In this document: positions 4,693-58,559 of the stretch, piece after piece | Position numbering within the stretch: position 1 is the first letter of the stretch | Layout of the letters: every line of letters begins with the position of its first letter | NCBI RefSeq assembly: GCF_028368995.1 | Contig: NZ_JAQNDL010000001.1 | Span: forward strand, 1,856,001 to 1,920,000 | Reading direction: 5' to 3' | DNA length: 64,000 bases | Origin: Nannocystis bainbridge | GTDB taxonomy: Bacteria; Myxococcota_A; Polyangia; Nannocystales; Nannocystaceae | Translations under genes and position numbers: made by a program | Notes under the pieces: generated by a model | Database searches by the model: none | What the model saw: the letters and a program-made list of their open reading frames with translations, nothing else | Told to the model about the DNA's origin: nothing

Positions 4693-4744
4693 CCACATGG
4701 CGCGACGAACATGGTCCTCGGGCCATGTTCATCGCGCCATGTCC
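4693..4744. repeat. 14-bp-phased CATG array (4 units)
   Basis: CATG at 4696, 4710, 4724, 4738. Confidence 0.8.
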
Positions 4745-4854
4745 TTTGATATCACCTCGTGGTCCGCCCTGCCCCGGTCGCATGCACGCCGAGCCGAAGC
4801 AGTCGCAGGCCCGGCGAGGTTGACAGGCGGTCGCTGCCGCACGAGCATCGACGC

Positions 4855-5109
4855 GTGGCGACAGTCCGGACGACGCTTGTCCGAGTCGAGGTCGAGACCG
4901 GTACGTCCGCCGAGCGAGAACTCGCGGAATGGTTGCGACGCTGGCGACGGCGCGGCGTCCGACGCGACGGCAAGCCGTCCTATCCGCACCAGGGCGCGTC
5001 GATGGTGCTCGTGTTCCATGCCCCTGAAGCGGCCATCGCCGACCTCGAGCGAGGGTTCGCCGGCTCGTCGTCCGCCGTGGTCACGCGCGTGCCCGCCGAC
5101 GCTGGCTGA
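4855..5109 (+). CDS. Small hypothetical protein whose 3' end is duplicated at 17959
   Basis: Plausible amino-acid composition from the GTG at 4855; start uncertain. Confidence 0.4.
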   Translation: MATVRTTLVRVEVETGTSAERELAEWLRRWRRRGVRRDGKPSYPHQGASMVLVFHAPEAAIADLERGFAGSSSAVVTRVPADAG

Positions 5110-5143
5110 GCCGCGCAGGGGTCCCGCGCGACGTCATTCGGCA
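5053..5143 (+). repeat. 91-bp direct repeat, copy 1
   Basis: Aligns without gaps to 17959-18049 with 6 mismatches (counted by eye). Confidence 0.9.
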
Positions 5144-5159
5144 GGTCACGGGCCCTGCG

Positions 5160-6704
5160 CTAGCGTCCGGGCGCGATCGTCGGCCGATACGTGGGCCGCT
5201 TGCGGGCCCGGGTCTCCTGCTCGAACGCGAAGCCGAGCGCCAGCAGCTCGGCCTCGCCGTTCGGCTTGCCGAGGAACGCGAGCCCGACCGGCAGCCCGTG
5301 GATCTCGCCCATCGGCACCGTCAGGCTCGGCGTCCCGGCGATCGCGGCCATGCTCGTGCCGCTGCCCGTAAACCTGTCCCCGAGCACAGGGTCGATCGGC
5401 CAGGCGGGTCCGGTGGTCGGGGCCACCACCGCGTCGAGCTTGTGCTGCTTCAGCGCCGCCCCGAGCCCCTCGTCCCACGCGAGCTTGCGCGCCGTCTCGC
5501 GGGCCGCGACGTACTCGGGCGAGTCGAGCGAGCCCTTGGCCTGCGCCTGCTCGAACAGCTCCTGCCCGAACCACGGCATCACCACCACCGCGTGCTCGCG
5601 GTTCCAAGCGATCACGTCGGCGAGCGACGACACCGGCGCGCGCGAGTCCTTGAGGTAGCGGTTCAGGCCGTCCTTGAACTCGAACAGCAGCACGTCGAGC
5701 GCGACCTCGTCCCACTTGTTCCACGTAGCGATCTCGATCGGGTCCACGACCTCGGCGCCGCGGGCCACGAGGGTCGCTACCGCGGCCTCGGTGAGCGCGT
5801 CGACATCGGGGTGGTAGCCCATCGCCTGCCGCAGCACGCCGATCCGCTTGCCCTGCAGCGCGTCGATCGAGAGCCCCTTCACGTAGTCGCGCGGCTCGCC
5901 CTCGGCCAGCGCCGCGAGCACGAGCGCCGCTTCGGTGACGGTGCGCGTCATCGGGCCCGCGGTGTCCTGCGTCGCCGAGATCGGGATGATGCCCTCGCGG
6001 CTCACGAGGCCCACCGTCGGCTTGAGGCCGACGAGGCCGTTGACCGCCGACGGGCACATGATGCTGCCGTCGGTCTCGGTGCCGACGCCGACGGCGGCGA
6101 GGCTGGCCGCGATCGCGGCGCCGGTCCCCGAGCTCGAGCCGCAGGCGTTGCGGTCGAGCACATAGGGGTTGCGCGTCTGGCCGCCGCGGCTGCTCCAGCC
6201 CGACACCGCGCGCAGCGAGCGGAGGTTGGCCCACTCGCTGAGGTTGGCCTTGCCGAGGATCACCGCCCCGGCCGCGCGCAAGCGGGCCACGAGCGGCGCA
6301 TCGGCGCGAGGGCGATGCGTCGCCAGCAACACCGTGCCGGCCGAGTTGGCCATGCCGACGACGTCGATGTTGTCCTTGATCAGCACCGGGATCCCGTGCA
6401 GCGGCCCGCGCACGCGGCCGGCCGCGCGTTCGCGGTCGAGCGCCTCGGCCTCCGCGCGCGCCCGCGGGTTGAGCTCGATCACCGCGGACAGTCGCGGGCC
6501 CGCGACATCGATCGCCGCGATCCGCTCGAGGTACGCCGCGGTCAGCCGCGCCGAAGTCAGCGAGCCGTCCTTCATCTGCGCCTGCGCTGTCGACACGTCG
6601 AGCTCGATCACCGCCGGCGCGACGCTGTCGGGCTCCCGCGCGTCGGCACCGGGACGACAACTGGCGAGGAGGACCGCAACTCCGACGACGAGGGCGCGAC
6701 GCAT
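5160..6704 (-). CDS. Amidase-signature family amidase (lipoprotein)
   Basis: KDNI, GSSSG and GTETDGSI motifs; the MRRALVVGVAVLLASC lipobox defines the start. Confidence 0.92.
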   Translation of the reverse strand: MRRALVVGVAVLLASCRPGADAREPDSVAPAVIELDVSTAQAQMKDGSLTSARLTAAYLERIAAIDVAGPRLSAVIELNPRARAEAEALDRERAAGRVRGPLHGIPVLIKDNIDVVGMANSAGTVLLATHRPRADAPLVARLRAAGAVILGKANLSEWANLRSLRAVSGWSSRGGQTRNPYVLDRNACGSSSGTGAAIAASLAAVGVGTETDGSIMCPSAVNGLVGLKPTVGLVSREGIIPISATQDTAGPMTRTVTEAALVLAALAEGEPRDYVKGLSIDALQGKRIGVLRQAMGYHPDVDALTEAAVATLVARGAEVVDPIEIATWNKWDEVALDVLLFEFKDGLNRYLKDSRAPVSSLADVIAWNREHAVVVMPWFGQELFEQAQAKGSLDSPEYVAARETARKLAWDEGLGAALKQHKLDAVVAPTTGPAWPIDPVLGDRFTGSGTSMAAIAGTPSLTVPMGEIHGLPVGLAFLGKPNGEAELLALGFAFEQETRARKRPTYRPTIAPGR

Positions 6705-6757
6705 CGCGGCTACCTTACCGCACCACTCGCCGCGCGGGTGTCCGGTGACTCCTGCCG

Positions 6758-7657
6758 TCACACCCGCCACGTCTTCCGGAGCCCTTCGAGGACGCGGTCC
6801 CGGTTGGCGGGCGTCAGCTTCTTGATCTCGCGCGGCTCCCAGGACTCGGGGTGTCTGCCGAGGATGTTCTCGTTGAACACGCAGGCCACCTCGTCGCCGA
6901 CCTTCGGCGCCGGCCTCGTGCACGAGAAGGGGCCCTCGAACTCTGCGAAGGGGGCGTCCCGATCCAGCGCGATGCGAAAGAGCTGCTTCTGCAGCATCTC
7001 CGACACGACCTCCCCGACGTGAACGACGCGCCCGACGCCGACAAAATTCTTCGGCGCCCGGTAGCGTGCCAGCACAGCGGCCTCTTCGGCAGGCTCGAAG
7101 TAGTGCAGAGAGTACTCGGGGGGCCCGTCGTGCTTGAGCTTCCAGCCCTGTGACGACAGCTCGATGGCGCGGGGCCCGACCCAGACAGTCCGCTCCCGGC
7201 TCCCGACGTCGGGCTTGAAGTCCGACGCATACACCAAAGAATTCTCGAAGTTCGCCTTGATCCAGCGGCCGAGCGCGTTGAACCAGGAGGTCATCGCGCG
7301 CGCGGTCTTCGGGTTCGTCGCTGGCGCCCCTCTCCAGCCCGTGGCGAGCGCGATACGGCCCACCCCGATCGAGGTGCCCTTGACCGGAGAGCGCAGGAAC
7401 TGGATGAGCGACTCGTCCGAGCGCAGGCAGTAGTCGTCGCACGACGCGACGTGCTCGACATGCGGCCGAGGGAGGATGGCCGCGTCCCACAGCATGCAAT
7501 GCAGGCTGTGGATCTCCCGGACCTCGCGCGTGCGGGGGAACTCGGGGCCCGGGCTCCGCACGTCGGTGATCAGCGAGACGGTCGGCCGCTCGAACACGAA
7601 GCTCAGGAAGGCGGCTTCATCTTCGGGCGCCATGAGCGTGATGAGCTGCGAGCGCAC
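6758..7657 (-). CDS. Hypothetical protein
   Basis: Protein-like composition from VRSQLITLMAPEDEAAF; start uncertain (7657 or 7633). Confidence 0.65.
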   Translation of the reverse strand: MRSQLITLMAPEDEAAFLSFVFERPTVSLITDVRSPGPEFPRTREVREIHSLHCMLWDAAILPRPHVEHVASCDDYCLRSDESLIQFLRSPVKGTSIGVGRIALATGWRGAPATNPKTARAMTSWFNALGRWIKANFENSLVYASDFKPDVGSRERTVWVGPRAIELSSQGWKLKHDGPPEYSLHYFEPAEEAAVLARYRAPKNFVGVGRVVHVGEVVSEMLQKQLFRIALDRDAPFAEFEGPFSCTRPAPKVGDEVACVFNENILGRHPESWEPREIKKLTPANRDRVLEGLRKTWRV

Positions 7658-7934
7658 GCCTGTCACTGTGCCACGCTCGAGCTCGGACGTGGGCGCCGAA
7701 CAGCTCGCCCGGATCGGTGCCGACCCACGGGTCGCCACGAACCCGAGGGCGCACGAGCTGGCGTCGTCGGCGACGGCACCGCCTACCAGCGCGTCAGGCG
7801 TGGTTGGGAAACACCGATGGACGTGCAGGCTCTGCAGTCGAGCGCAGTCGTCATCTCGACCGCGACGCCGGCGCTCAGTGAGAGCTTCGGCGTGACGCTC
7901 CTGGGCATTCATCGGCCGAGCGGAGCCGCCGCGG

Positions 7935-8828
7935 TCACGCCGGCCCCAGCGCCCACCCCAGCCGCCCGAGCCCCTCCGCCAGGAACCTCGCGCTCGCCTT
8001 CACCCGCGGCACCGAGCGCACGTCGCGGTGCACCCCGAGCCACAGCTGCCGCCGCGGGCCCGGTACCGGCGTCGGCAGCAGGCGCAGGTTCGGCGCGCGG
8101 TCGCCGAGGAAACGCGGCAGGCAGGTCATGCCGAGCCCCGCCGCGGCCATCGTCACCATCGGTTCGCGCCCGTTGGTGCGCACGCCCACCCTTGCTCGCC
8201 CGGCGATCTGCGGCAACCACTCGACATCGGGGATCTTCGTCAGCGACTCGCTCATCGCAATCAGCACGTGCCCCTCGCACTGGGCCGCGAAGTCCGGCAT
8301 GCCGCGCTGCGCGAGGTAGCCGTCGGACGCGTACAGGCCGAAAGCGACCGCGCCCACCTGCCGCTGCACCACCTCCGCCTGCTCGAAGCGCGACGGCCGG
8401 ACCGCGATGTCGGCCTCGCGGCGCGACAGGCTCAGGTGCCGCACGTCGGCCACCAGCTCGAGCTCGAGCCCCGGGTGCTCGCCGACGAACGGTCCCAGCA
8501 GCGGCCCCAGCACGCTGCCGACCAGCCACTCCGACGCCGTGATCACCACGCGCCCGCGCAGCCCCACGTCGCGCCCCGCGGCCACCCGCTCGGCGGCCAG
8601 CGCCGCGGCCTCCATCTGCTCGGCGCGCGCCAGCATCATCCGTCCCGAGGGTGACAGCGATTGACCCGTCGCCGCCGGCACGAACAGCCGCGCCCCGAGC
8701 GTCCGCTCGAGCGCGGCCATCCGGCGCCCCACTGTCGGCTGGGTCACCCCCAGCCCGCGCGCCGCCGCCGAGAACGAGCCCGCGCGGGCCACCGCGAGGA
8801 AGAAGCGCAGGTCGTCCCAGTCGAGCAC
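7935..8828 (-). CDS. LysR-family transcriptional regulator
   Basis: LDWDDLRFFLAVARAGSFSAAARGLGVTQPTVGRR HTH; divergent from the HAD gene. Confidence 0.92.
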   Translation of the reverse strand: MLDWDDLRFFLAVARAGSFSAAARGLGVTQPTVGRRMAALERTLGARLFVPAATGQSLSPSGRMMLARAEQMEAAALAAERVAAGRDVGLRGRVVITASEWLVGSVLGPLLGPFVGEHPGLELELVADVRHLSLSRREADIAVRPSRFEQAEVVQRQVGAVAFGLYASDGYLAQRGMPDFAAQCEGHVLIAMSESLTKIPDVEWLPQIAGRARVGVRTNGREPMVTMAAAGLGMTCLPRFLGDRAPNLRLLPTPVPGPRRQLWLGVHRDVRSVPRVKASARFLAEGLGRLGWALGPA

Positions 8829-8924
8829 CGCCTGCCAGCGTACACGGCCCCATGCAGAAATGCATGCCAGGCGTGTGCCGTTCGGCAATCGACCTCTCTG
8901 CCGGGACCCGTCATGCTCGATGGC

Positions 8925-9689
8925 ATGTCTCGCCGCCAGTTCCTCCGCGTGGTCGCCGGCGCCGGCGGCCTGCTCGGTGCGTGCCGCACCACGGGCGCCC
9001 AGCCGCCCGTGGGCGGCCGCGCCGAGATCCGCGCGATCTGCTTCGACCTGTTTACCCTGTTCGACCCACGCGGCGTGGAGCGGGCCGCCGAGGCCGTCGC
9101 CCCCGGTCAGGCCGCAGAGCTGTGCCGCGACTGGCGCGTCCGACAGTTCGAATATGCATGGCTGCGCGCCACCGCCGACCAATACCGCGACTTCGAGTTC
9201 GTCACCGGCGAGGCCCTCGATTACGCCGCCGGGGCACGCGGTCTCTCGCTGTCCGCCGCCGAGCGCCGCCGCCTCGTCGCCGCATACTCCGAGCTCACGC
9301 CGTGGCCCGACACCCGCGCCGCCCTCGACGCATGGCGGCGCGTCGGCCTGCGCCTGGCCCCCCTCGCCAACTATTCGCCGGCGATGCTCGATCGCCTGCT
9401 CACGCACGCCGGGCTCGCCGACCTGTTCGACGACCAGATCAGCACCGACCGCGCCCGGACCTACAAGCCGAGCCCGCGGGCCTACGCACTCGGACCGACC
9501 GCGCTCGGCGTCCCGCGCGAGCAGATAGTCTTTGCCGCGTTCGGCGGCTGGGACGCCGCCGGGGCCGCCTGGTACGGCTTTCCCACGTTCTGGCTCAACC
9601 GCCTCCAAGTCGCGCCCGAGGCCCTGTCAGCCGCCGCGCATGCGACTGGCGCGACGCTCGCCGATCTCGCCGCGTTCGTCGCCGCTTGA
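8925..9689 (+). CDS. Haloacid dehalogenase type II with Tat/lipoprotein signal
   Basis: SRRQFL twin-Arg followed by LLGAC; CFDLFT motif I, YKPSPRAY and WDAAGA. Confidence 0.85.
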   Translation: MSRRQFLRVVAGAGGLLGACRTTGAQPPVGGRAEIRAICFDLFTLFDPRGVERAAEAVAPGQAAELCRDWRVRQFEYAWLRATADQYRDFEFVTGEALDYAAGARGLSLSAAERRRLVAAYSELTPWPDTRAALDAWRRVGLRLAPLANYSPAMLDRLLTHAGLADLFDDQISTDRARTYKPSPRAYALGPTALGVPREQIVFAAFGGWDAAGAAWYGFPTFWLNRLQVAPEALSAAAHATGATLADLAAFVAA

Positions 9690-9699
9690 ACCGTCGAGG

Positions 9700-9934
9700 A
9701 AGCCGCGTCTGGCCATCGGGGATGGGCCAAGATCGCGGGGCCTTCGTCGGCTGGCTCGACCCAGGGGAGCGGCGTGCGAATCTCGACGGCGAGCGGCACC
9801 GTCGGGTCGTGGATGCCGTCGGCGAAGCCGCCGCGCGACGAGTGGAACGCGAGCGACAGGCCGTTCATCTGCTGATAGAAGCTCCGCAAGGCAGCCGGGA
9901 GGGCGAACCCCAGCCGGGACACGGGAACACTCAT
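9700..9934 (-). pseudogene. SMI1/KNR4 (SUKH)-like immunity gene remnant
   Basis: LGFALPAALRSFYQQMNG matches the SUKH N-terminal signature; the remainder is degenerate and the 3' boundary is approximate. Confidence 0.45.
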
Positions 9935-9960
9935 CGCCGGCGCTCGGCGCGGCCTCGTTC

Positions 9961-10977: not shown

Positions 10978-11094
10978 AACAACCCCGGACAGACTGCGCA
11001 CAGCTCGTCGCTGCGGCGGGAGAGGAGGGCGTGTCATCGGTCGTGCAGGGCCAGGCAGACGGCTCTGGCCTCCGACAGGGGACCGAGCGTCCGC

Positions 11095-11565
11095 TCAGTT
11101 CAGGTGATAGCGGGTTCCCCTGGCTTTTCCGGACCAGGTGAGCTCCCCGGCCTCGATGAGGCGGTTCAGACCTGCGCGGACCTGCATGTTGGAACCACCG
11201 ATGCGCTCTTGAACTTGTGAGGCACTGACGGGGCCTCCGATGGCCGTCACGACCTCGAGAAGCCTTTTGTCGAAGGCTTCGCGGCCGGCATGCGTTCGCG
11301 TATTTACGTCCGCCACCTCGACCGTATTCGTCGGGTGGGACTTGGCCGGGGCAGCCTTGCCCCCCGGAGCCTCTCGGACGGGGGTTTGTGAGCCATGACG
11401 CCCTTGCAAGTCAGAGATGGTGATCGAGCGCAGCAGTGAGCCGAGCTCTCCGCGCGCCAATTGCTGCAGTTCTGCGAGGGTGAGCTGGGGGTGCTGAAGC
11501 AGGAGCTCGATCAGGAGCTCACGCTTGCGGTCTTCCATTGCGGCCACGAGATCGAACTTGGACAC
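11095..11565 (-). CDS. Small winged-helix DNA-binding protein
   Basis: C-terminal wHTH (VSASQVQERIGG...VRAGLNRLIEAGELTWSGKARGTRY); start uncertain. Confidence 0.7.
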   Translation of the reverse strand: MSKFDLVAAMEDRKRELLIELLLQHPQLTLAELQQLARGELGSLLRSITISDLQGRHGSQTPVREAPGGKAAPAKSHPTNTVEVADVNTRTHAGREAFDKRLLEVVTAIGGPVSASQVQERIGGSNMQVRAGLNRLIEAGELTWSGKARGTRYHLN

Positions 11566-11992
11566 GGCCGCGACAGTAGCACACTTGCGCAAGTGTCTGT
11601 ACGCTCGCTCGGCCGTCGCTGGCGACCGAGCCCCGCCGAGCTCGAGTCGTGCCGCGGGTATCGAACGGGCCGAGTAAGTCGTGCTCCCTGTCACTGGCCT
11701 CGGCTCGCACCCCGGCGCTGACGCTATACGAGCGGCGCCTCGCACCGCGCGGTCGTCGAAAGCGCAAGGCCGTCCCGACACGACCGACGAGCGAACGGCT
11801 GCAAGAGCCGGCCGGGAGGTCATGGCGCTCGCGCAAAGGTGGTCCAATTCTACGGCCCTCTCCATGCGGAGCCGTACCGACGAAGCGCCGACGCACGCCG
11901 TCTCGACCGGCGCGGGCGACCGCCACGCGCGCCCCTTGCAGGCGCGACGGGCGCGACGGGCCGAGGCCCGCGTGGGGGTCGAGGCCGACCCG

Positions 11993-28309: not shown

Positions 28310-28313
<4 letters not shown>
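27576..28313 (+). CDS. MacB/LolD-type ABC ATP-binding protein
   Basis: GTSGSGKS, LSGGQQQR and ILADEPTGNLD. Confidence 0.95.
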
Positions 28314-29536
<1,223 letters not shown>

Positions 29537-29539
<3 letters not shown>

Positions 29540-29571
29540 CATGTCCCCGGGGACATGTCCTCGGGGCCATC
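29537..29571. repeat. 14-bp-phased CATG array containing the 18-bp direct repeat copy 1 (29543-29560)
   Basis: CATG at 29540 and 29554; CATC at 29568. Confidence 0.8.
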
Positions 29572-31319: not shown

Positions 31320-31320
31320 G

Positions 31321-31405
31321 GTCCCCGGGGACATGTCCATCACGCCATGTCGTCCAGGACATGCTCTCTTGAGCATGTCCTGGGGGACATGTCGTGATGG
31401 ACACC
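31321..31405. repeat. 14-bp-phased CATG array (5-6 units) containing the 18-bp direct repeat copy 2 (31321-31338)
   Basis: CATG at 31332, 31346, 31360, 31374, 31388. Confidence 0.9.
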
Positions 31406-31449: not shown

Positions 31450-31827
31450 TCAGTCGACCGCGACCACGCGCACGGGGATGCACTCCTCTTCTTCGTACTC
31501 GACCTCGACGGCGATGCAGGTCTCGCCGACCGACACGCCGACGAGCACGAAGTTGTGGGCCCCGGGCGTCGCCTCGGCCAGCAGGACGTCGCGGTCCTGG
31601 CTGACCAGCGCGAGCGCGTCCTTGTTGGTGAACTCGATGCGGGCGCTGCTCTCGATCGTCACGTGGACCGCGACGGCGATGCCGACCGGGACCTCGAGCT
31701 CGTCGCCGGTCAGGCGCACCGGCACAGGCGGCTGGCTGCGCACCTCGAAGGTCACCGTCTGGTAGCGCGGGCCGCAGGCGGCGAGCAGCCCGGCGGCGGC
31801 GAGGGTCATGAAGGCGGAGCGGATCAC
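31450..31827 (-). CDS. Small Ig-like lipoprotein
   Basis: LLAAC lipobox; GTGA overlap with the upstream stop. Confidence 0.75.
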   Translation of the reverse strand: MIRSAFMTLAAAGLLAACGPRYQTVTFEVRSQPPVPVRLTGDELEVPVGIAVAVHVTIESSARIEFTNKDALALVSQDRDVLLAEATPGAHNFVLVGVSVGETCIAVEVEYEEEECIPVRVVAVD

Positions 31828-32684
31828 AGCGCACCTCCCGTCGTGTCGGAGGTCGAGTCCCCGGTGCTGGCGTCGGTCGTGCCGTCGCTCGTCGCGTCGG
31901 TCGTGCTCGCGTCGGTCGTGCTCGCGTCGGTCGTGCTTTCGTCGGTCGTGCTGTCGCTCGTCGCGTCGGTCGTGGTCAGCGGTGGTTCGCCCGACTCGAC
32001 GGTGAGCGCCAGCTCGGCCACCAGGTCGCCGAGGCTCGCCTTGACGGTCGTGCTGCCGGCCGCGACGGCGCGCACGATCACGTGGCCGTCGCCGGTGCCG
32101 ACCACCTCGACCACCCCGTCGTCGGCCACCTCGAAGGTGAACGCGAGCAGGCCGGCGAGCACGTAGCGGTCGGTGTCGCGGGCGATCGCCACCAGCTCCA
32201 GCTCGCTCCCGGCCGCCAGCGTGTACGCGTCGTAGTCGACGCGCTGGTGCTGGATCGCCAGCGTCGCCGGCCTCGTCGCGAACACGTGGATCAGGTCGCC
32301 GATGGCGCTGTCCGGCAGCAGCGCCAGGACGGCGGTGTGGCCGGCGGCCACGGCCGTGAAGATCCCCGCCTTCAGGCTCAGGCGCTCGGCGGCGCCGGTG
32401 CGGAGTTCGGGCGGCGGCCGCGAGAGATCTTCGTTCCAAGTGTAGTCGAGGGCGAAGCGGGCGCCCACGGCCACGCGGACCGGGAAGTCGCCGACCGACT
32501 CGCCGGTCGGACAGGCCGGATCGTCCGCGCCGATGCAGCGGAAATGGAACTCGCCGTTGCCGAGCTCGCCAGGGCCGGGCTGGGGGTCGTAGGGGGCATC
32601 GCTGCAGTCGTCGAGGCATCCACCGAGGGCGAGGAGCCCCGCCAGGAGCAGCGGGCGGGAGAAGGCACATGGTCTTGAGGACAT
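31824..32684 (-). CDS. Lipoprotein with Ig-like (Big_2) domain and TTD(A/E)S-repeat tail
   Basis: LALGGC lipobox; AVAAGSTTVKAS; 15-bp repeats at about 31870-31975. Confidence 0.75.
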   Translation of the reverse strand: MSSRPCAFSRPLLLAGLLALGGCLDDCSDAPYDPQPGPGELGNGEFHFRCIGADDPACPTGESVGDFPVRVAVGARFALDYTWNEDLSRPPPELRTGAAERLSLKAGIFTAVAAGHTAVLALLPDSAIGDLIHVFATRPATLAIQHQRVDYDAYTLAAGSELELVAIARDTDRYVLAGLLAFTFEVADDGVVEVVGTGDGHVIVRAVAAGSTTVKASLGDLVAELALTVESGEPPLTTTDATSDSTTDESTTDASTTDASTTDATSDGTTDASTGDSTSDTTGGAL

Positions 32685-32835
32685 AAACTTAAGAACAGGT
32701 CGTAAGGGCCAGATCGAGACGCAGACCGCGTCCGTCCTCGATCTTGACCGGACGGCGAGGCAGCCGCAAGGGAGACCGGGCGACCCCGACGCAGTCTTCA
32801 GGCGCGCATCGAGCGCGGGGCCGCTCGCCTGCCGC

Positions 32836-40240: not shown

Positions 40241-40262
40241 CGACATGTCTCAAAAGACATAT
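40241..40262. repeat. 14-bp-phased unit (TGTCTCAAAAGACA)
   Basis: CATG at 40244 and CATA at 40258. Confidence 0.65.
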
Positions 40263-45621: not shown

Positions 45622-46671
45622 ATGACCTCGCCACGCTACCCGCTGCCCAACGCCTTCGTCCCGCTCCGCGCCGCGCACCTCGCCGGCAAGCGGGCCACGG
45701 GCCTCAAAGACGTGCTCGTCGCCGGCCCGCTCGTGCTCGCCAGCGGCCGCCTCGTCGCCTGCGACGCCCTCGTGCAGCCCGAGCGCCCGCCGTTTTCCCG
45801 CGTCCTCGCGCCCGGCAGCTACCCCGTGGTCCTCTACGTCGCCAAAGCGGGCGGCGCGATCGGCTTCGCCGAGCTCCGTCTGCGCGACGCCCCCGCCCTG
45901 CGCTTCGAGATGGCCACGATCGCCGGCCAGGACCCCGCCACGCTCGGCCCGCGCGAGACCTTCGGCTATCCGGTCGGCACCGGGCTCGGCTGCTTCGCCG
46001 ACGAGGTCGCCCTGCGCCGGCTGCGGGAGCTCGACGCCGACAACGCCTACGACCGCATCGGCCCCGAGCTGGCCGCCAACGGCGGCGCGTGGGTCAGCCA
46101 CCGCCCCGACCCGCAGGCCGACGACAACGTCGTGCTGTTCCGCTCCGGCGACGGCGACGGCCACTACCCGACCTGGTTCGGCCTCGATGCCGACGACCGG
46201 CCCGTGTGCGTCGTCACCAGCTTCCGCTGCTTCCCCGAGCCCGAGACCGCCGACGACAGGCAGGCCAGGCTCGCCGAGACGTTCGCGCCGCTGGTCGCCG
46301 CCGTCGATCGCGACCTCGGGGCCGGCCTGCGCGCGCGCGGCTTCACCGGCCCCGAGGCGACCTACAAGGGCAAGACCGACGGCGAGCTCAAGCTCGTGTA
46401 CACGCGCGACGGCCTCGCCTTCGAGGTCCTCGGCTCGGCCACCGGCCGCCACCTCTTCACCACCCAGTTCCGCTGGGCCCGCGGCCGCTCGACGCTCGAC
46501 GTCGGCAACGAGCACCGCAAGGCCGGGGTGCCGATCGACTGGAAGGAGGGCGTCGCCGTCGGCGACGCCGCCTTCGTCCACGCAACTCGCATCGGCGCCT
46601 CCTACGCCGCCGGCTGGGACGCGCTCGAGCAAGCGGTCCTGCACTACCTGCCGCTCAAGCGCGCGCGCTGA
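45622..46671 (+). CDS. DUF4241-domain protein
   Basis: SGRLVACD, PGSYPV, FGYPVGTG and SGDGDGHYP. Confidence 0.75.
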   Translation: MTSPRYPLPNAFVPLRAAHLAGKRATGLKDVLVAGPLVLASGRLVACDALVQPERPPFSRVLAPGSYPVVLYVAKAGGAIGFAELRLRDAPALRFEMATIAGQDPATLGPRETFGYPVGTGLGCFADEVALRRLRELDADNAYDRIGPELAANGGAWVSHRPDPQADDNVVLFRSGDGDGHYPTWFGLDADDRPVCVVTSFRCFPEPETADDRQARLAETFAPLVAAVDRDLGAGLRARGFTGPEATYKGKTDGELKLVYTRDGLAFEVLGSATGRHLFTTQFRWARGRSTLDVGNEHRKAGVPIDWKEGVAVGDAAFVHATRIGASYAAGWDALEQAVLHYLPLKRAR

Positions 46672-46681: not shown

Positions 46682-46759
46682 AGACATGCCCTCGGAGACA
46701 TGCTCCCAGAGACATGCCCTTGAAGACATTACCCTGAGAGCATGCCCCTCGGGGCATAC
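46682..46759. repeat. 14-bp-phased CATG array (6 units)
   Basis: CATG at 46685, 46699, 46713; CATT at 46727; CATG at 46741; CATA at 46755. Confidence 0.9.
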
Positions 46760-48303: not shown

Positions 48304-48402
48304 CCGGCAGGTCGACCCGGCGGATAGTGACATCCGAGCGCCGAACATCCTCCGACGACCTGTCCTCGAGGACATCCGATTCGCCCGCACCCCCGCGACC
48401 GC

Positions 48403-48596: not shown

Positions 48597-48620
48597 CGAC
48601 ATGACCTTTCGGACATGTCG
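48597..48620. repeat. 14-bp-phased CATG pair
   Basis: CATG at 48600 and 48614; degenerate units also at 48331-48376. Confidence 0.65.
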
Positions 48621-48783: not shown

Positions 48784-49668
48784 ATGCAACAGCGCGACTG
48801 CCTGGCGACCCGCTTCGAGGCGCACCGGACCTATTTGCGGGGCGTCGCCTACCGCATGCTCGGCTCGCTGAGCGAGGCCGACGACGCCGTGCAGGACGCC
48901 TGGCTCCGGCTCGCCCGCACCGACTCCGCCGCCGTCGACGACCTGCGCGCGTGGCTCACCACCGTGGTCGCGCGGATCTGCCTCAACCTGCTGCGCGCGC
49001 GCGGCACCCGGCGCGAGGAGCCGCTGGGCCCGCACGTGCCCGACCCGGTCGTGCGCCGCGAGCCTGGCGTCGACCCCGAGCGCGACGCCCTGCTGGCCGA
49101 GTCGGTCGGCCTCGCGCTGCTCGTCGTCCTCGACGAGCTCGCGCCTGCCGAGCGGCTCGCGTTCGTGCTCCACGACAGCTTCGGCGTATCGTTCGACGCC
49201 ATCGCCGCGCTGTGCGGGCGCACGCCCGAAGCCGCGCGGCAGCTGGCCAGCCGCGCGCGCCGGCGGGTCCGCGCCGCCGCCCCCGTGCCCGACCCCGACC
49301 TCCCCCGTCAGCGCGAGGTCGTGTCCGCCTTCTTCGCCGCCACCCGCGCCGGCGACCTCGGGGCCCTCGTCGCCCTGCTCGACCCCGACGTGATCCTCCG
49401 CGCCGACGGCGGCACCGCGCGCGCCGAGGTCTCGGTCGTCGCCCGCGGCCCGCAGGCCGTCGCCGAGCACTCGCTCGGCTTCGCCGCGATGACCCCGTTC
49501 GTCCGCCCCGCCGTGGTCAACGGCGCCGCCGGGGCCGTCGTCGCCCCCGGCGGCGAGCCGTTCTCGGTCATGAGCTTCGTCGTCAAGGCCGGCAAGATCG
49601 CCGCCATCGACGCCCTCGTCGATCCCGAGCGCCTCGGGAGGCTCGACCTCGGCGACCTCGACGGCTGA
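48784..49668 (+). CDS. ECF41 (SigJ-like) sigma factor with SnoaL-like C-terminus
   Basis: AYRMLGSLSEADDAVQ, PDP, RQLASRARR, ADGG and VNG. Confidence 0.92.
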   Translation: MQQRDCLATRFEAHRTYLRGVAYRMLGSLSEADDAVQDAWLRLARTDSAAVDDLRAWLTTVVARICLNLLRARGTRREEPLGPHVPDPVVRREPGVDPERDALLAESVGLALLVVLDELAPAERLAFVLHDSFGVSFDAIAALCGRTPEAARQLASRARRRVRAAAPVPDPDLPRQREVVSAFFAATRAGDLGALVALLDPDVILRADGGTARAEVSVVARGPQAVAEHSLGFAAMTPFVRPAVVNGAAGAVVAPGGEPFSVMSFVVKAGKIAAIDALVDPERLGRLDLGDLDG

Positions 49669-49670
49669 TA

Positions 49671-49756
49671 TTCCATGTCTCATCGGACATGCTCGAAACG
49701 ACATGTACATCAAGACATATCATCGGCGCTCATGACATGCCCCTTCGGACATGTCA
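49671..49756. repeat. 14-bp-phased CATG array
   Basis: CATG at 49674, 49688, 49702; CATA at 49716; then 49736 and 49750. Confidence 0.88.
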
Positions 49757-49773
49757 TGAACGCCACCCGCGCC

Positions 49774-50751: not shown

Positions 50752-50763
50752 GGTCCTCGGATG

Positions 50764-51000: not shown

Positions 51001-51810
51001 TCAGAGGTCCTTCGACCTGTCCTTAGGGGCATGCCCTTCGGGACATGCCGAGGCCACCCGCCCGGCGTACGTCGAGCGCGGGTGGGCGCGCAAGAACGCC
51101 GCCGCCTCCACGGCCCCACGCGCCGCCTCGCCCGCAGCGCACAGCGCCTGCACCCGCAGCGCCTGCCGCTCCTCGAGCATGCAGCAGTCCGCGAACTCCT
51201 CGGCGTGGCGCTCCAGCACCGCCAGCGCCGCGCCCGGCTGCCCGCCGCGCAGGGCCGCTCGGGCCTGCTGCAGCAGCGCCATCTCGGCCAGCATGCGGTC
51301 CCCCTCGGCGACCGCCTCGTCGCCGCCTTCGGCCGCCTCGGCGGCCCCGGTCCCGCTCTCGGCCCTGCTCGCCGCGCGCCCCCTCGCCCCCGCCTGCGCC
51401 CCGCGCCCCTGGCCCGCCGCCCGTTCGCGCGGCGGCGTGACCACCAGCTTTTGCCCTTCGAGCTCGGGCGTGCCCGCCTCGCGCGGCCCGCCCTCGCCGT
51501 CCGCCCGGATCCTCGCGTCCTGCGAATCGGGCCCCGCGGCGTCGTATTCGGCCTGGTGCCGCATGTCCTGAAGGACCTGTCCCGGCACGAACATGCGGGC
51601 CAGGTCGAGCTGCCAGGCCGCCAGCAGCAGCAGCCCGGCCGCCAGCGCCAGCCACGGCGCGCGGCTCGGCCGGTCCTCGCGGCCCCGCGGTCCGTCCCGC
51701 TCGGCCGCCGCGAGCGTCGCCCACAGCTGCGCCTCGGCGGCGGCGGACGGGCGCGCACAGGCCCGGTAAGCGGCGATCAGCGCGCGAGCGGACGGCGATT
51801 CATCGGTCAT
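51001..51810 (-). CDS. Putative anti-sigma membrane protein with C-terminal TPR-like helices
   Basis: Overlaps the ECF stop; one TM; LLQQARAALR...ERQALRVQALC. The 3' end runs into a 14-bp array (51016, 51030, 51044). Confidence 0.75.
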   Translation of the reverse strand: MTDESPSARALIAAYRACARPSAAAEAQLWATLAAAERDGPRGREDRPSRAPWLALAAGLLLLAAWQLDLARMFVPGQVLQDMRHQAEYDAAGPDSQDARIRADGEGGPREAGTPELEGQKLVVTPPRERAAGQGRGAQAGARGRAASRAESGTGAAEAAEGGDEAVAEGDRMLAEMALLQQARAALRGGQPGAALAVLERHAEEFADCCMLEERQALRVQALCAAGEAARGAVEAAAFLRAHPRSTYAGRVASACPEGHAPKDRSKDL

Positions 51811-52387: not shown

Positions 52388-52393
52388 CGGACC

Positions 52394-52424
52394 AGTCTTT
52401 TCCGCCGGCGCCCGATCGCATTAA
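52394..52424 (-). promoter_or_regulatory. Putative ECF autoregulatory promoter, copy 1
   Basis: TTAATGCG-n7-GCCGGCGG-n2-AA. Confidence 0.6.
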
Positions 52425-52461
52425 CCCCGACGCACGATTTTTTGGCCCGGCGCACGATCGC

Positions 52462-53589: not shown

Positions 53590-53718
53590 GCGGTCGCCGC
53601 AGGATACGTGAGCCGCCGGGTGATGCAAACGCAGACGCGACCGATCGCCAGCGCGCGCACCACGAAACCCGCCGCACCCCGGGCGACGGCTCGCTCCCGA
53701 CCCCGTCCCTGCCCCTTT

Positions 53719-53753
53719 CGACATGCCCCATCCGACATGTCCGAAAGACCACG
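53719..53753. repeat. 14-bp-phased CATG array
   Basis: CATG at 53722 and 53736; CACG at 53750. Confidence 0.7.
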
Positions 53754-53794
53754 TGCTCTGGCGGTCGCCGGCCCGGTCTCTTACCCTCGGAGCC

Positions 53795-54352
53795 ATGCTC
53801 CGCGCCGCCTCGCTCCGGCCCGCGCTGACCGTCGCGCTGGTCGCCGCCTGCACCCATGCCCGCCCTGGCCCGCTCCAGCAGGGCCCCGCGGACACCGACG
53901 CGGCCGCCGTGACCGACGAAGCGCCGCTCTCCGCTCCAACCGTGGACCCGCCGGCGATCGTCGACCACGAGCAGCCGCAGCCCGGTCCGCCGCGCTGGCG
54001 CCCCCTCGAGACCGATCCGCGCCTGGTCCTCCGCGACGGCAGCGACGAGCTCGGCTTCCTCGAGCAGCCGTGCGCCGTCGACGAGCCGTGCGGCTGCCTC
54101 GTCGCGGCCGAGCACCGCTACCATCGCCGCGGCGACGGCTGGACGATCGTGGTCGTGCTGCCGGAGGTCGAGATCCGCCGCGTGGTCAAGCGCGGCACCT
54201 GCCTCGAGGGCTGCGGCCAGCCGCACCCCCCCGAGCCGACGCCCATCCGCTCGCTCGGCGCCGTCGACCCCGCGAAGGTCGAGATCGTCGTGAAGCGCCC
54301 GCGCAAGGTCATCACGAAGACGACCTGCACCGATCCGCACCTCGCCCCGTGA
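53795..54352 (+). CDS. Lipoprotein
   Basis: LVAAC lipobox; GGAG RBS. Confidence 0.75.
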   Translation: MLRAASLRPALTVALVAACTHARPGPLQQGPADTDAAAVTDEAPLSAPTVDPPAIVDHEQPQPGPPRWRPLETDPRLVLRDGSDELGFLEQPCAVDEPCGCLVAAEHRYHRRGDGWTIVVVLPEVEIRRVVKRGTCLEGCGQPHPPEPTPIRSLGAVDPAKVEIVVKRPRKVITKTTCTDPHLAP

Positions 54353-54497
54353 ACCCCCGGGCAGAGCCCCCGCGGCCTGCGGATGGAGCTGTGGCGCGCA
54401 ACCTCGCCGCGCGCTGGATCTCCGATCTTCGCGGTCCGCCGCCCCGCGAGCGCGCGACCCTCCGCGATCACGCTAGACTGCGGCCCGGAGGTGCGCG

Positions 54498-55199
54498 ATG
54501 GACACGCGAGTCGACGAGGTGGCCGAGGGGATCTTCCGCCTGAACACCGAGGTCCCGGGCTTCAACTTCAATCAATACCTGGTCGTCGACGACGAGCCGC
54601 TGCTGTTCCACACCGGGCCGCGCGGGCTGTTCGACAGCGTGCGGGCCGCGATCGCCCGCGTCGTCGCGCTCGATCGACTGCGCTGGATCGGCTTCTCGCA
54701 CGTCGAGGCCGACGAGTGCGGCGCGCTCAACCAACTCCTGGCCGTCGCCCCGCACGCGGCGCCGGTGTGCAGCCAGGTCGCGGCCCTGGTCTCGATGACC
54801 GACCTCGCCGATCGTCCGCCGCGCGCCCTCGCCGACGGTGAATCGCTGACGCTCGGCCGCCACAGCGTCACCTGGCTCGACGCCCCGCACGTGCCGCACG
54901 GCTGGGAGTGCGGCTACCTGTTCGAGCGCGAGACCCGGACCCTGCTGTGCGGCGACCTCTTCACCCAGAGCGGCGGCTGCGACGTCCCGCTCACCGAGGG
55001 CGACATCCTCGGGCCCAGCGAGGCCTTCCGCGCCCAGATGGACTATTTCGCCCACGGCCGCCGCCAGAGCGCGATCCTCGAGCGCCTCGCCAGCACCGGG
55101 CCGACCACCCTCGCCTGCATGCACGGCAGCGCGTGGCAGGGCGACGGCGGCGCGCTGCTCCGCACCCTCGCCACCACGCTCGCCGGCGCCGCGCCTTGA
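54498..55199 (+). CDS. MBL-fold protein (flavodiiron N-terminal/ODP-like)
   Basis: NQYLV, SHVEADECG, PHVPHGWE, CGDLFT and ACMHG. Confidence 0.88.
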   Translation: MDTRVDEVAEGIFRLNTEVPGFNFNQYLVVDDEPLLFHTGPRGLFDSVRAAIARVVALDRLRWIGFSHVEADECGALNQLLAVAPHAAPVCSQVAALVSMTDLADRPPRALADGESLTLGRHSVTWLDAPHVPHGWECGYLFERETRTLLCGDLFTQSGGCDVPLTEGDILGPSEAFRAQMDYFAHGRRQSAILERLASTGPTTLACMHGSAWQGDGGALLRTLATTLAGAAP

Positions 55200-55209
55200 A
55201 GATCACAGG

Positions 55210-55237
55210 CCCCGCATGGCGAGCGCGCCATGCGGGG
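55210..55237. terminator. Hairpin between convergent genes
   Basis: CCCCGCATGGCG-agcg-CGCCATGCGGGG. Confidence 0.65.
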
Positions 55238-55252
55238 ATCCTGCCTCTCGTA

Positions 55253-56467
55253 TCAATCGTCGATCGCCTGATACGCCAGCGCCAGGAAATCACGGCACAC
55301 CGGCGGCGGCTGCGGCGACGACCACATGCATTGCGTCAGCAGCAGCGTGATCACGCCTTCCTGCGGATCGCTGCGCCACTGCGAGCCGAGCCCGCCGTCC
55401 CAGCCGTACTGCCCGATCGGCGCGTGGGCCTCGTCGCGGCGCGTCACCACCGACACCCCGAAGCCGTAGCCGCTCGCGGCGAAGTCCTCCGGCGAGAAGC
55501 CCGACTTGGCCTTTTGCGCCGGCGTCAGGTGATCGGTCGTCATCAGCTCGACCGACGGCCGCGACAGGATCCGCTGCCCTGCGAGCGTCCCGCCGGCCAA
55601 TAGCATGCGCGCGAACGCCAGATAATCGTCGACCGTCGACACCAGCCCGCTCGCCCCCGACGCGAACGCCGGCGCCCGGCTCCACTGCCCGCCGCGGCCC
55701 TCGTCGTACACCCCCAGCGTCCCGTCCGGCCCCGGCCAGTAGCTCGTCGCCAGGCGATCGATCTGCGCCTCCGGCACAAAGAACCCCGTGTCCTTCATCC
55801 CCAGCGGCGCGAAGATCCGCGCCTGCAGGAACTCGGCGAACGGCTGCCCCGACGCGCGCGCGATCAGGATCGACAGCAGCTCCGAGCCCATGTTGTAGAG
55901 CCACCGATCGCCCGGCTGGTACATCAGCGGCAGCCGCGAGAACTTCGCCAGCCACTCGTCCCCGGGCGGCACCTCCGCCGGCGCCGGCGGGCCCGCTCCG
56001 AGCCCCAGCGCCGCGGCTGCGCGCAGGATCGGGTACGCGTCCGGGCGCGCCATCAGCATCCCGAAGCCGAGCCTGAACGTCAGCAGGTCGCGGACCGTGA
56101 TCGGCCGCGCCGCGGCGACCGTGTCCTCGATCGGCCCGTCGATCGCCCGCAGCACCTGGCGCTCGGCCAGCTCGGGCATCCACGCGTCGACGGCGTCGTC
56201 GAGCCGCAGCTTGCACTCCTCCACCAGGATCATCGTCGCCACCGCGGTGATCGGCTTGGTCATCGAGCTGATGCGGAAGATGCTGTCGCGCCGGACCGGC
56301 GGCCCGCCCAGCGCCAGGGCCCCGAGCGCCAGGGTGTGCACCTCGTCGCCGTGGCTCACCACCGCCACCAGCCCCGGCACCTCGCCGCGCTCGACGTAGC
56401 CGGCCATCCCCTCGCGCACACGCTCGAGCCTGGTCTCCGAGAATTTTCTTCGGGTGTCTCGCTCCAT
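55253..56467 (-). CDS. Serine hydrolase, beta-lactamase class C-like
   Basis: FRISSMTK, PGDRWLY, PLGMKDT and YGWDG. Confidence 0.92.
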   Translation of the reverse strand: MERDTRRKFSETRLERVREGMAGYVERGEVPGLVAVVSHGDEVHTLALGALALGGPPVRRDSIFRISSMTKPITAVATMILVEECKLRLDDAVDAWMPELAERQVLRAIDGPIEDTVAAARPITVRDLLTFRLGFGMLMARPDAYPILRAAAALGLGAGPPAPAEVPPGDEWLAKFSRLPLMYQPGDRWLYNMGSELLSILIARASGQPFAEFLQARIFAPLGMKDTGFFVPEAQIDRLATSYWPGPDGTLGVYDEGRGGQWSRAPAFASGASGLVSTVDDYLAFARMLLAGGTLAGQRILSRPSVELMTTDHLTPAQKAKSGFSPEDFAASGYGFGVSVVTRRDEAHAPIGQYGWDGGLGSQWRSDPQEGVITLLLTQCMWSSPQPPPVCRDFLALAYQAIDD

Positions 56468-56732
56468 TCGTCTCCTCGCCTTTCTTTGGCCTTGCAGGGG
56501 GTAGACCGCCGCCCGCCCCGAGACTCATCGGTGCGGCTCGCTCGCCAGGCATGACCTATCACACACACCTGCGACCCCGGCGGCGCTCCTGGACGCGACT
56601 GGCAACACGTTTCACGTGACTCGATGCGATTGGGCGACCGCCTCATCGGCGAGACACGGCGAGGAAGACGTCGAGCTTGCGCGCGGCGGATCCAACCGTC
56701 GCGCACTCGCTATGAGTCCACCGACCCTGAAA

Positions 56733-56781
56733 CGTCATGACTTTCAGGACATGCTTTTTAAGACATGTCCTTTTCATCATC
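56733..56781. repeat. 14-bp-phased CATG array
   Basis: CATG at 56736, 56750, 56764; CATC at 56778. Confidence 0.85.
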
Positions 56782-56873
56782 CCGGCCCCTCGCACGATCG
56801 CCGCTGCACCTTGCTCGCGCCTTCGCACGAGGAGCGTGGAGATCCGTGCGATCTCCCCGACACGCTTGCGAAT

Positions 56874-57125
56874 GGTGAGACGCGCTGCGCTGCCGGGCAG
56901 CCTCGCCAATCGCCGGGCTCCGCTCGATCCATCCCAGACATCCGAGAACACGACCCCCTGACGACCGATCCGGGAAAACGCCTGCAATCCCTCGATTACG
57001 GTGAGACGCGCTGCGTCGCTGGGCAGCCTCGCCAATCGCCGGACTCCGCTCGCTCGATCCACGCAGTGCTCGTGACACGCTACCCTGACGATCGAGGCGG
57101 TAACGCCTGCAAACCCCTCGACCAC
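56874..57125 (+). repeat. Two ~126-bp tandem direct repeats
   Basis: GGTGAGACGCGCTGCG...GGGCAGCCTCGCCAATCGCCGG at 56874 and 57000. Confidence 0.85.
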
Positions 57126-57455
57126 AAAACCCTCCGCGAACCGGATCCACATCGGCTCTCCCGGCAGCCGCGATCGCGGGCACCCGCCTCCCCGCGAATC
57201 AACGCTCCTCCGTACGGCTCGGACCCGCATCGCATCACCCACAGCCATGACTGCATGCATCGACCTTTGTCGGTCCGCGAATCACCCTCGACGGTCCGGC
57301 TCGCTCGGGAACGCGACGGCTCACCCCAATACGCCGTCCGCATGCGTGGATCGCCCGGCACCTGTCGGACCCGACATCGACGCACGCTCTCGCGCGCCGA
57401 TATTCAGCCTGGCTTGATCCGCGCCAGACCATGGTCGCGCGCTACAAACCTGGGC

Positions 57456-57674
57456 ATGCCTCAGTTCATCCTTGAAGATTTCAACCTGGAAAACGCCGAG
57501 CGGCGCCTCTGCCTCGAGGCGCTGGAGCGGGCCGGCAACATCGTCGGCGCCGCCAAACTCCTCGGTATCACCCGTCACGCCATGAAGCGGCGCATCATCA
57601 AGCTGCGCCTCGACTGGACCCGCGGCGCCGTCCCGCCGCGCGGCAGCGCCTCGGGCCCGACCGGAGTTTCGTGA
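57456..57674 (+). CDS. Stand-alone Fis-family HTH protein
   Basis: LENAERRLCLEALERAGNIVGAAKLLGITRHAMKRRI. Confidence 0.85.
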   Translation: MPQFILEDFNLENAERRLCLEALERAGNIVGAAKLLGITRHAMKRRIIKLRLDWTRGAVPPRGSASGPTGVS

Positions 57675-58040
57675 GCCGTGGCGCGGTCGAATGCGCGCAC
57701 ACCGGCCGGTGCGCGCGATTCGTCCGCGTCGGGTTCTCGAGCCGTCGGAGCGCGAGGTCGCGCGCTTTTTATCCGCAATGCACGCGCCCCTCGACCTCCT
57801 CACTCGAGCGGCGCTGCCTTGCGAACGAAGCGCGAAGCCGAACCTTCCATACGCTCTCATTCACCGCGACCCCGTTCGCCGGGGACCGAACCACTTCAAT
57901 AGCAAAACTGCCGGCCACATCTCCGTGCCCAGCCGATTGCGACGACCGTGACGATCAGCGTACCCGATCGTCGCCGAAGTCCGAGTCCCCCAATGTCTAC
58001 CGGTCACCTCCATGCCTCGTATCCGGCCAATCCACAGCCT

Positions 58041-58559
58041 CGACTCCGGGCCTGGCTGCAGTTCGCCGAGTGTCGCGCGTACTTGAGAGCATCGTTCAAA
58101 ACATGCTCTTCAGGACATGTCCCGGCGCAGCGGCATCTTTCTCCGATCCCCGCCCTGTCTCGCCGCTCCCGGCGCCCGCGAGCCCCCGCCAAACCCCGCA
58201 CCGCCTGCGGCAGATACCATCGACTCCGGGCCTGACAGCAGCTCGCCGAGTGTCGCGCGTACTTGAGAGCATCGTTCAAAACATGCTCTTCAGGACATGT
58301 CCCGGCGCAGCCGCATCTTTCTCCGATCTCCGCCCTCACCGCTCCTGGCGCCCGCGAGCCCCCGCCAAGCCCCGCACCGCCTGCGGCGGAAATCACCGAC
58401 GCCGGGCCTGACAGCAGCTCGCCGAGTGTCGCGCGTACTTCAAGAGCATCGTTCAAAACATGCTCCTCAGGACATGTCCCGGCGCAGCCGCATCTTTCTC
58501 CGATCTCACCGCTCCCGGCGCCCGCGAGCCCCCGCCAAACCCCGCACCGCCTGCGGCAG
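58041..58559 (+). repeat. Three ~180-bp tandem repeats, each carrying a 14-bp-phased CATG pair
   Basis: Units start at 58041, 58221 and about 58397; CATG pairs at 58102/58116, 58282/58296 and 58459/58473. Confidence 0.92.

Follow-up and report, generated by a model that had tools for sequence, protein, structure and literature searches.

Rows of palindromic units at a 14-bp period in Nannocystis, a hyper-abundant and selected DNA motif with a candidate reader of the XRE family

The rows of palindromic units described here, which keep a strict period of 14 bp and were noticed in a 64,000-nt stretch of a Nannocystis genome (NZ_JAQNDL010000001.1, positions 1,856,001 to 1,920,000; this whole stretch is called the window below), can be set beside several described systems. 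Repetitive extragenic palindromic (REP) sequences and bacterial interspersed mosaic elements (BIMEs) are extragenic palindromes that cluster behind genes, mostly convergent ones, are linked to RAYT and carry a GTAG/CGTC tag. Rho acts on RNA polymerase that lacks a ribosome, after stop codons and on antisense transcripts. The arrays also bear a likeness to hyper-abundant dispersed words, which extends to the uptake sequences DUS (DNA uptake sequence) and USS (uptake signal sequence). Of these words it is HIP1 (highly iterated palindrome 1) of cyanobacteria that they resemble in being hyper-abundant, lineage-specific, palindromic and conserved in coding DNA (PMC5861425). Unlike a fixed, ungapped and dispersed word of the HIP1 or DUS type, however, the Nannocystis unit is gapped and degenerate, abuts its neighbours in 14-bp rows, is biased towards stop codons and has a candidate binder, whereas HIP1 shows a periodicity of tens of kb and, in the accessible part of its description, no binder in electrophoretic mobility shift assays (PMC5861425).

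Two groups of DNA-binding proteins complete the comparison. The controller (C) proteins of restriction-modification systems, among them C.Esp1396I, C.AhdI and C.Kpn2I, share with the candidate reader the XRE fold and sites in the leader of their own gene; dimers of C.Esp1396I bind cooperatively 15 bp apart, a period that like the present one is about one and a half helical turns (PMC2504287), and C.Kpn2I is described as an elongation roadblock (PMC6237814). Unlike the sites of C proteins, the Nannocystis sites number thousands, form rows of up to 20 junctions at period 14 and lie at gene ends, and the candidate XRE protein was seen without linked restriction-modification genes and has a basic insertion and a two-helix C-terminal part. 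The nucleoid proteins CdbA of Myxococcus xanthus and Fis likewise have many chromosome-wide sites with an intergenic excess (PMC7156744), but CdbA reads an 18-bp direct repeat, while the unit here is an inverted repeat set in rows that is unenriched in 170 of the 171 class genomes outside the family. Within this landscape, the arrays are a variant of the hyper-abundant protein-read motifs, real and selected. The literature on Nannocystis repeats, Rho, intergenic motifs or myxobacterial HIP1, uptake and REP sequences, with subscription papers and bioRxiv supplements mostly outside its accessible part, showed, in titles and abstract openings, no description of the element, which is apparently undescribed.

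The 14-bp period stands out in the window and in the whole genome. In the window, 22 pairs of CATG lie 14 bp apart and at most nine at any other distance up to 60; its intergenic DNA holds 21 such pairs, compared to a mean of 0.99 and a maximum of 5 in 1,000 random placements. The genome that holds the window (G000; 11.05 Mb, 71.5% GC, 90% complete by markers) contains 3,736 CATG pairs at 14 bp, a 35.9-fold excess over the median for distances in the same codon phase, with echoes at 28, 42, 56 and 70 bp, so that the autocorrelation peak at 14, 28 and 42 bp expected by an earlier note on this DNA is present, while for the remaining palindromic 4-mers with usable counts the 14-bp excess is at most 1.56. 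A weight-matrix scan returned 2,795 arrays at period 14, compared to 41 at period 13, 82 at period 15 and 30 at period 16. Some arrays are homogeneous tandem copies, and the longest is an AT-rich row of 20 junctions (G000:C3:1237911-1238190) between a YbjQ-like and a threonine-synthase-like gene, both named by eye. Phased junctions were present at every place the earlier note had named, and several of its rows are pure CATG runs, although its longer counts had taken in variant junctions (CATC, CATA, CATT, CAGG, CCTG). Likewise, its description of the arrays as mostly intergenic holds overall, yet 807 of the 2,795 lie inside called genes. Genes were called in G000 from dicodons (8,182 genes, 84% coding, with starts and some short genes uncertain), and those scoring under 25-40 were removed before the gene-end, conservation, in-gene, position and hairpin counts. 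The contig ends of G000 (C1 end with C2 end; C2 start with C5 end) are duplicated and inverted over 10-20 kb, likely assembly artefacts that slightly inflate copy counts.

The unit spans about 20 bp and reads R-S-M-TGTCY-n4-RGACA-K-S-Y, that is, two junction words (RGACA-K-S-Y) 14 bp apart; CATG is the junction common to neighbouring units, and rows extend by sharing junctions and stop at TG...CA at their ends. The flanks outside the rows are informative too, with T or G at +1 in 92% and T or C at +3 in 87% of the 2,544 sides without a next junction, and a perfect junction stands alone in just 92 of 1,353 cases. The junction word resembles a p53 half-site, which we take to be coincidence. Sensing of CATG methylation, proposed in the earlier note, is not supported by this anatomy, since CATG is the overlap of two sites, CAGG and CCTG junctions are common among arrays, and CATG outside arrays is as frequent as other 4-mers (observed/expected 1.18). 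The co-variation of arms that had been read from the window did not survive counting: Watson-Crick pairing was 0.422/0.565/0.565 across the 4-nt loop and 0.318/0.565/0.591 across CATG, close to the 0.417/0.546/0.573 and 0.423/0.561/0.586 expected from column composition. When oriented by their own gene the arrays are symmetric, without strand bias. Their RNA folds well (-28.6 kcal/mol versus -15.8 after shuffling), as a hairpin protecting RNA 3' ends should, but units drawn at random from other arrays nearly match this value (-26.4), and the pairing, strand and folding tests revealed no strand-specific hairpin with a U tract and compensatory changes. Equally improbable is that the boxes are a self-mark that serves DNA uptake, recombination or defence and was spread by biased exchange. 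A self-mark would suit the hyper-abundance of the unit, its conservation in genes and its absence from foreign-looking islands, as for HIP1 (PMC5861425), but strict 14-bp rows with degenerate positions point to a cooperative binder, and convergent gaps are 38-fold richer in sites than genes.

Selection acts on the units themselves, also within coding sequence. In orthologous arrays, place and phase persist although the sequence between junctions varies, and places are kept across deep splits. In anchored alignments, which cover few loci per species pair, between-species identity was 0.905-0.933 for cores, 0.67-0.81 for arms, 0.52-0.71 for loops and 0.70-0.87 for adjoining 3' DNA. Strict units within genes number 1,049, compared to 11 and 23 after synonymous resampling, and A or T at four-fold sites was kept in 33 of 34 comparisons inside units versus 572 of 2,595 elsewhere, the former representing about nine sites seen in four relatives and thus not independent. 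In-frame rows encode GHVxxDMS-like loops in carA and other genes, named by eye, and the mfd gene carries an in-frame array of four junctions (G000:C5:15203-15258). The loop row in carA is present in G000 and G001 and missing from G009, G013 and G019.

Such in-frame arrays, with the carA row found in just two of five genomes compared, and the homogeneous tandem copies among the arrays would be expected of a selfish mini-element of the REP or MITE (miniature inverted-repeat transposable element) kind that inserts in safe places, protein loops included. This explanation is largely refuted and has very little probability left. Among 4,716 two-unit strings, 18 recur (16 in the contig-end duplicates, one locally and one dispersed; 0-3 by resampling), no paired identical terminal repeats frame an element at the arrays of G000, which also speaks against the remnants of an IS or MITE that the earlier note had kept in view, the Y1/RAYT transposase profile PF01797 was not found in G000 (90% complete) with matches in 6 of 14 controls, the cores are under selection and places are kept across deep splits. 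The arrays share with REP sequences and BIMEs the clustering of palindromes behind genes, mostly in convergent gaps, and thus show REP-like extragenic, 3' and convergent placement; unlike them, they lack near-identical copies, stem co-variation and the GTAG/CGTC tag, RAYT was not found, and many sites lie in genes. A search of the window against Rfam gave no match, and the arrays do not have the constant repeats of 23-55 bp with unique spacers of CRISPR, their period being 14; that they match neither REP, CRISPR nor attC structures, as first noted, was thus borne out. Insertion or recombination targets, another early suggestion, are contradicted by the lack of dispersed identical copies and by the even chromosomal spread. 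Because arm co-variation, strand bias and copy-paste are lacking and the cores are conserved at silent positions, the boxes are, as judged from sequence, a double-stranded protein-binding site under DNA-level selection. A two-fold-symmetric dimer very probably binds the unit and contacts a neighbour every 14 bp; the strict period, the rarity of lone junctions, the DNA-level selection and a candidate XRE reader all favour the cooperative polymerising sites proposed in the earlier note.

The position of the units is tied to the ends of protein genes. Units start to appear two bases past the stop codon and become sparser over about 100 nt, so that the arrays seen right after stops in the window, for instance directly behind that of the MacB/FtsX permease gene at 29539, exemplify what is the main feature of the family and had been underrated; the earlier note had also passed over the in-frame rows within genes and the loss of Rho. 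Densities per kb are 7.53 in convergent gaps, 2.07 in tandem gaps, 0.66 in divergent gaps and 0.20 in coding DNA, and in long tandem gaps the units crowd at the stop of the upstream gene. A unit lies within 100 nt downstream of 5 of 104 tRNA/tmRNA calls, whereas protein genes have one at 684 of 1,411 ends that face a convergent gene and at 507 of the 2,102 remaining ends, and the rRNA operon end examined has a classical terminator. Arrays spread over all contigs, without the bias towards dnaA that a check relative to the origin might have revealed, and are missing only from atypical islands of low GC; their frequency climbs only slightly with a codon-based expression score.

Among genomes the motif is abundant in one clade only. 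The family set comprised 61 genomes, of which 20 are motif-rich (8 Nannocystis, 5 of genus g2 and 7 of genus g4) and 41 motif-poor. Arrays of three junctions occur in 9 of 10 other Nannocystis genomes, in 0 of 14 other family genomes and in 0 of 16 class genomes; relatives thus share them within the genus and not, at the three-junction level, in the wider family. Single units reach further, with 479-3,312 copies in 8/8 Nannocystis, 259-483 in 5/5 g2 and 167-1,175 in 7/7 g4 genomes, and 2-37 in the 41 other family genomes (controls 1-27). In a tree of 26 genomes built from five concatenated proteins, the three genera group together as a single clade (support 70). For g4, a sample of 60-80 kb revealed no new palindrome, and the genome-wide count then showed the Nannocystis single unit there. 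Beyond the family, the count of single units is 0-39 in 170 of the 171 class genomes. The exception, G559, has 66 matches that cannot be counted as the same motif, as they are terminal repeats of a mobile element: this unrelated class genome (L272-L277) carries about 30 copies of a 190-210 bp MITE plus longer elements with terminal repeats of the GGGGACGG type, presumably Tn3-like. A small motif regulon considered in genus g282 was dismissed because its flanks are random. A GTDB-wide scan gave, among the matches listed, 69 Nannocystis or Nannocystaceae records and 10 others (nine ordinary tandem repeats and one single long palindrome); in a phylum sample, 15 of 400 genomes had at most five matches, which among those listed were tandem repeats, and viral contigs contained no match of four junctions.

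Four candidate reader families were profiled over the same 61 genomes, and the distribution of one of them, a clade-specific XRE (HTH_3) protein, follows that of the motif. In G000 it is encoded by a pair of genes outside the window (G000:C1:4266693-4267073 on the minus and G000:C3:1091654-1092055 on the plus strand). Predicted after a look at five genomes and then checked over the 61, the protein is found in 17 of the 20 motif-rich genomes, those without it being 60-67% complete, and in 0 of 41 motif-poor ones, with two copies in 8/8 Nannocystis genomes and one in g2 and g4, and the 35 database homologues bearing a name come from Nannocystis or Myxococcales bins. Across 38 sequences, the recognition helix TGLTVTTVNKLE varies little or not at all. 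The structure model (pLDDT, the predicted local distance difference test, 80), in which a basic insertion separates helices 1 and 2 and the C-terminal part consists of two helices, has C.AhdI and SinR as nearest folds, and the profile found no match among PDB sequences at E 0.001. The leader of the XRE gene itself carries degenerate junctions at 14-bp phase. In g4, where arrays were otherwise not found, the boxes of this leader outscore every one of the 157 background leaders in 4 of 5 genomes, and in Nannocystis a percentile of at least 0.95 is reached by copy A in 7 of 8 cases and by copy B in 6 of 8. Metagenome copies point the same way, with leader scores of at least 10 for 25 of 41 at period 14 versus 6 and 1 at periods 13 and 15, and with 41 strict units in the 346 kb of their contigs versus 0.7 for spacer controls; three distant XRE loci had no strict units in 32 kb. 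No linked restriction-modification genes were among the XRE neighbours in G000, read by eye. Taken together, the XRE protein is probably the reader of the boxes, a claim that draws on distribution and leader sequences.

That another protein reads the same sites, for instance a stand-alone Fis-type (HTH_8) family or some other clade-specific protein, is unlikely. A Fis-type gene lies in the window at 57456..57674 (+), one of 11 copies in G000, and is a secondary candidate since the family is expanded in the three motif-rich genera (3-14 copies in Nannocystis, 4-7 in g2, 3-6 in g4, 0-1 in 38 of the 41 others), specific to the Nannocystaceae (29/29 versus 0/171) and similar in fold, with weak E-values, to Fis and the DNA-binding domains of sigma54 activators. 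A subtype with GNIVGAA instead of GSIVEAA is found in Nannocystis alone, and the family has promoter-like leaders that its copies share. However, the same recognition helix occurs in motif-poor genera, where matches are few and their flanks random, with K on 37 of 80 sides, copy number does not correlate with motif density within g2 and g4 (rho -0.23), and Fis-type leaders hold few boxes. Genes with upstream arrays, screened as a list, included no obvious reader.

Further families were considered as readers and rejected; background to the Fis and histone leads is given in PMC11407668 and bioRxiv 2023.02.26.530074. A winged-helix family of nucleoid type was rejected as it has 0-10 copies regardless of the motif. 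Its member in the window (11104-11562, minus strand) combines an N-terminal helical domain, a basic linker and a C-terminal winged helix; the family, which has seven matches in G000 and among them one whose codon score resembles that of ribosomal proteins, looks like a nucleoid protein or xenogeneic silencer. A ribbon-helix-helix (RHH) protein was ruled out by its presence in 59 of 61 family genomes with the same recognition strand in motif-poor genera; encoded at L319:284-511 (-), it is a single-copy protein of 75 aa whose N-terminal half does not vary and whose SQHFTF tail is conserved, and a pattern scan for further RHH proteins returned none. A CdbA-like gene and a histone were set aside because most of the class lacks the motif. 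The former (L318:1399-1608, minus strand) is a Pfam RHH gene that we take to be CdbA-like and lies 1 kb from a homogeneous array of eight junctions; the bacterial histone gene is in L325.

What the rows might do is suggested by their position and by the transcription machinery of the family. A search for the RNA-binding domain of Rho gave a match in none of the 61 family genomes versus 61 of 104 class genomes outside the family, with a patchy presence in the class families f7, f10, f15 and f19, and three Rho proteins used as queries gave only weak matches in G000, at genes that presumably encode ATP-synthase subunits. The accessible part of PMC13613805 names Cyanobacteria and some Firmicutes as Rho-less exceptions, with no mention of Myxococcota. 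Hairpin-plus-U terminators stand at 136 of 7,272 gene ends in G000 (307 of 4,254 by a looser rule, a count inflated by the arrays themselves), and Mfd is present. Of the 12 public RNA runs listed, covered as contigs of mixed metagenome runs, none contained as many as half of the array words; such contigs carry no information on RNA ends. At a LacI roadblock, Mfd does about 90% of termination and a trailing ribosome aids passage (PMC4132739). Given a reader, bound rows may by such analogies act as elongation roadblocks, although we hold this with some reserve. In the mechanism that we propose, XRE dimers would occupy each unit and touch adjacent dimers, the protein would also occupy its own leader, and its duplication in Nannocystis would have allowed head-to-tail rows. 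RNA polymerase pushed by a ribosome would pass the rows, so that sites would be tolerated within genes, while polymerase just bereft of its ribosome at a stop codon, or running antisense, would stall at them and be released by Mfd. The rows would thereby do the job of Rho in a lineage that lacks this factor and has few intrinsic terminators, and roadblock, Mfd release and ribosome-aided passage would together explain both the stop-codon bias and the tolerance within genes. The proposed action on polymerase without a trailing ribosome is like that of Rho; unlike in Rho termination, the proposed signal lies on DNA, is symmetric, is read by a repressor-type protein and ends in release by Mfd. This whole chain, in which XRE proteins would form a cooperative lattice, block RNA polymerase that no ribosome follows and so serve termination, is put forward tentatively. 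The stronger version, that a third bacterial mechanism accounts for most transcription termination in Nannocystis and that thousands of DNA roadblocks built by a polymerising XRE protein, rather than Rho or hairpins, stop ribosome-less polymerase only, is doubtful.

Several observations weigh against this proposal. Rho is missing also from all 41 motif-poor family genomes, which means that the lattice is not needed for life without Rho; in two of them, G019 and G465, convergent gaps are mostly shorter than 25 bp and show no visible terminator or signal of this type. Among convergent gaps of G000, stems of at least 10 occur in 17-25% of those free of arrays and in 9-20% of those with arrays, a weak mutual exclusion, and most array-free convergent gaps show neither hairpin nor array. 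Rows of 4-10 junctions lie within carA and other housekeeping genes, strong promoters are reported to push through roadblocks (PMC4132739), and in samples of 60-80 kb from g2 and g4 the single units are scattered, many of them in genes, with no clear gene-end bias. As for the reader, the g2 XRE leader only reaches a percentile of 0.92-0.975, copy A follows a gene of the same orientation, and leaders of orthologues do not count as independent; moreover, since the three motif-rich genera form one clade, the match of XRE and motif counts as one gain plus one duplication and is a single evolutionary event.

A role of the same sites, probably with the same XRE reader, in nucleoid architecture or supercoil management is possible, if somewhat doubtful in its turn, and nearly as likely as termination. 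It fits the even spread over contigs, without dnaA bias and with gaps only in low-GC islands, and the selection on in-gene sites equally well, and it has a precedent in CdbA, a myxobacterial nucleoid protein with more than 500 sites and little effect on transcription (PMC7156744). Sites would then gather behind genes because promoters are least disturbed there and positive supercoils collect there. Against an architectural role, the sites crowd at stops even in long gaps and avoid tRNA ends, and array frequency rises only slightly with the expression score.

A candidate reader can now be named in a class of motifs whose readers mostly stayed unidentified (HIP1 has none). If the termination proposal is true, it explains how a high-GC bacterium copes with the absence of Rho and the scarcity of U-tract terminators, and provides a translation-gated terminator at the level of DNA; if the role is architectural, a repressor-family protein has turned into a genome-wide, sequence-specific nucleoid lattice whose history is traceable, with reader and single sites gained in the three-genus clade, and duplication and head-to-tail rows in one genus. 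For heterologous expression of Nannocystis gene clusters, gene-end signals of this kind would go unread in other hosts.

Within the window, the arrays illustrate the range of contexts. Convergent gaps hold four of them: 4696..4741, with four CATG junctions, 13 nt behind the stop of an M4 peptidase gene (2488-4683, plus strand); 31320..31405, with five CATG junctions (31332-31391), whose position and phase are kept in 5/5 relatives while inter-junction letters differ; 46685..46758, with six junctions, two of them variant (CATT at 46727, CATA at 46755), behind the stop of the gene at 45622-46671 (+); and 49674..49753, behind the stop of an ECF sigma gene (48784-49668, plus strand), which consists of two adjoining arrays mutually out of phase, the first with three CATG then CATA and the second with a CATG pair at 49736. 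The row CATG-CATG-CATC at 29540..29571 (CATC at 29568) immediately follows the stop of the permease gene (28310-29539, plus strand) and has the same place and phase in 5/5 aligned relatives. Other rows touch coding sequence, namely the degenerate CATG-CATA-CAGG at 32668..32699 (CATA at 32682, CAGG at 32696), well conserved in relatives, at the 5' end of a gene at 31824-32684 (-), and CCTG-CATG-CATG at 51016..51047 (CCTG at 51016) in the last codons of a called gene at 51001-51810 (-). Divergent gaps contain a single CATG-CATA unit at 40244..40261 (CATA at 40258) and a unit with two CATG junctions at 53722..53739, with arrays in the orthologous gap of four relatives. Degenerate units with one clear unit at 48361 (48331..48374), a single unit of two junctions (48600..48617) and an array of three CATG then CATC (56736..56781) complete the set, together with a 180-bp intergenic repeat present three times in tandem (58040..58570) with one unit of two CATG each (58102, 58282, 58459), so that the units at 58102-58476 are one site triplicated by local repetition.

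A second hyper-abundant palindrome, TGYA-nn-TRCA, not seen in a sample of the congener G444, occurs in about 50 copies in 80 kb of the 61%-GC genome G011 (L169-L172, G011:C1:100001-180000), where the form TGTA-2-TACA was counted 12 times versus 0.4 expected.

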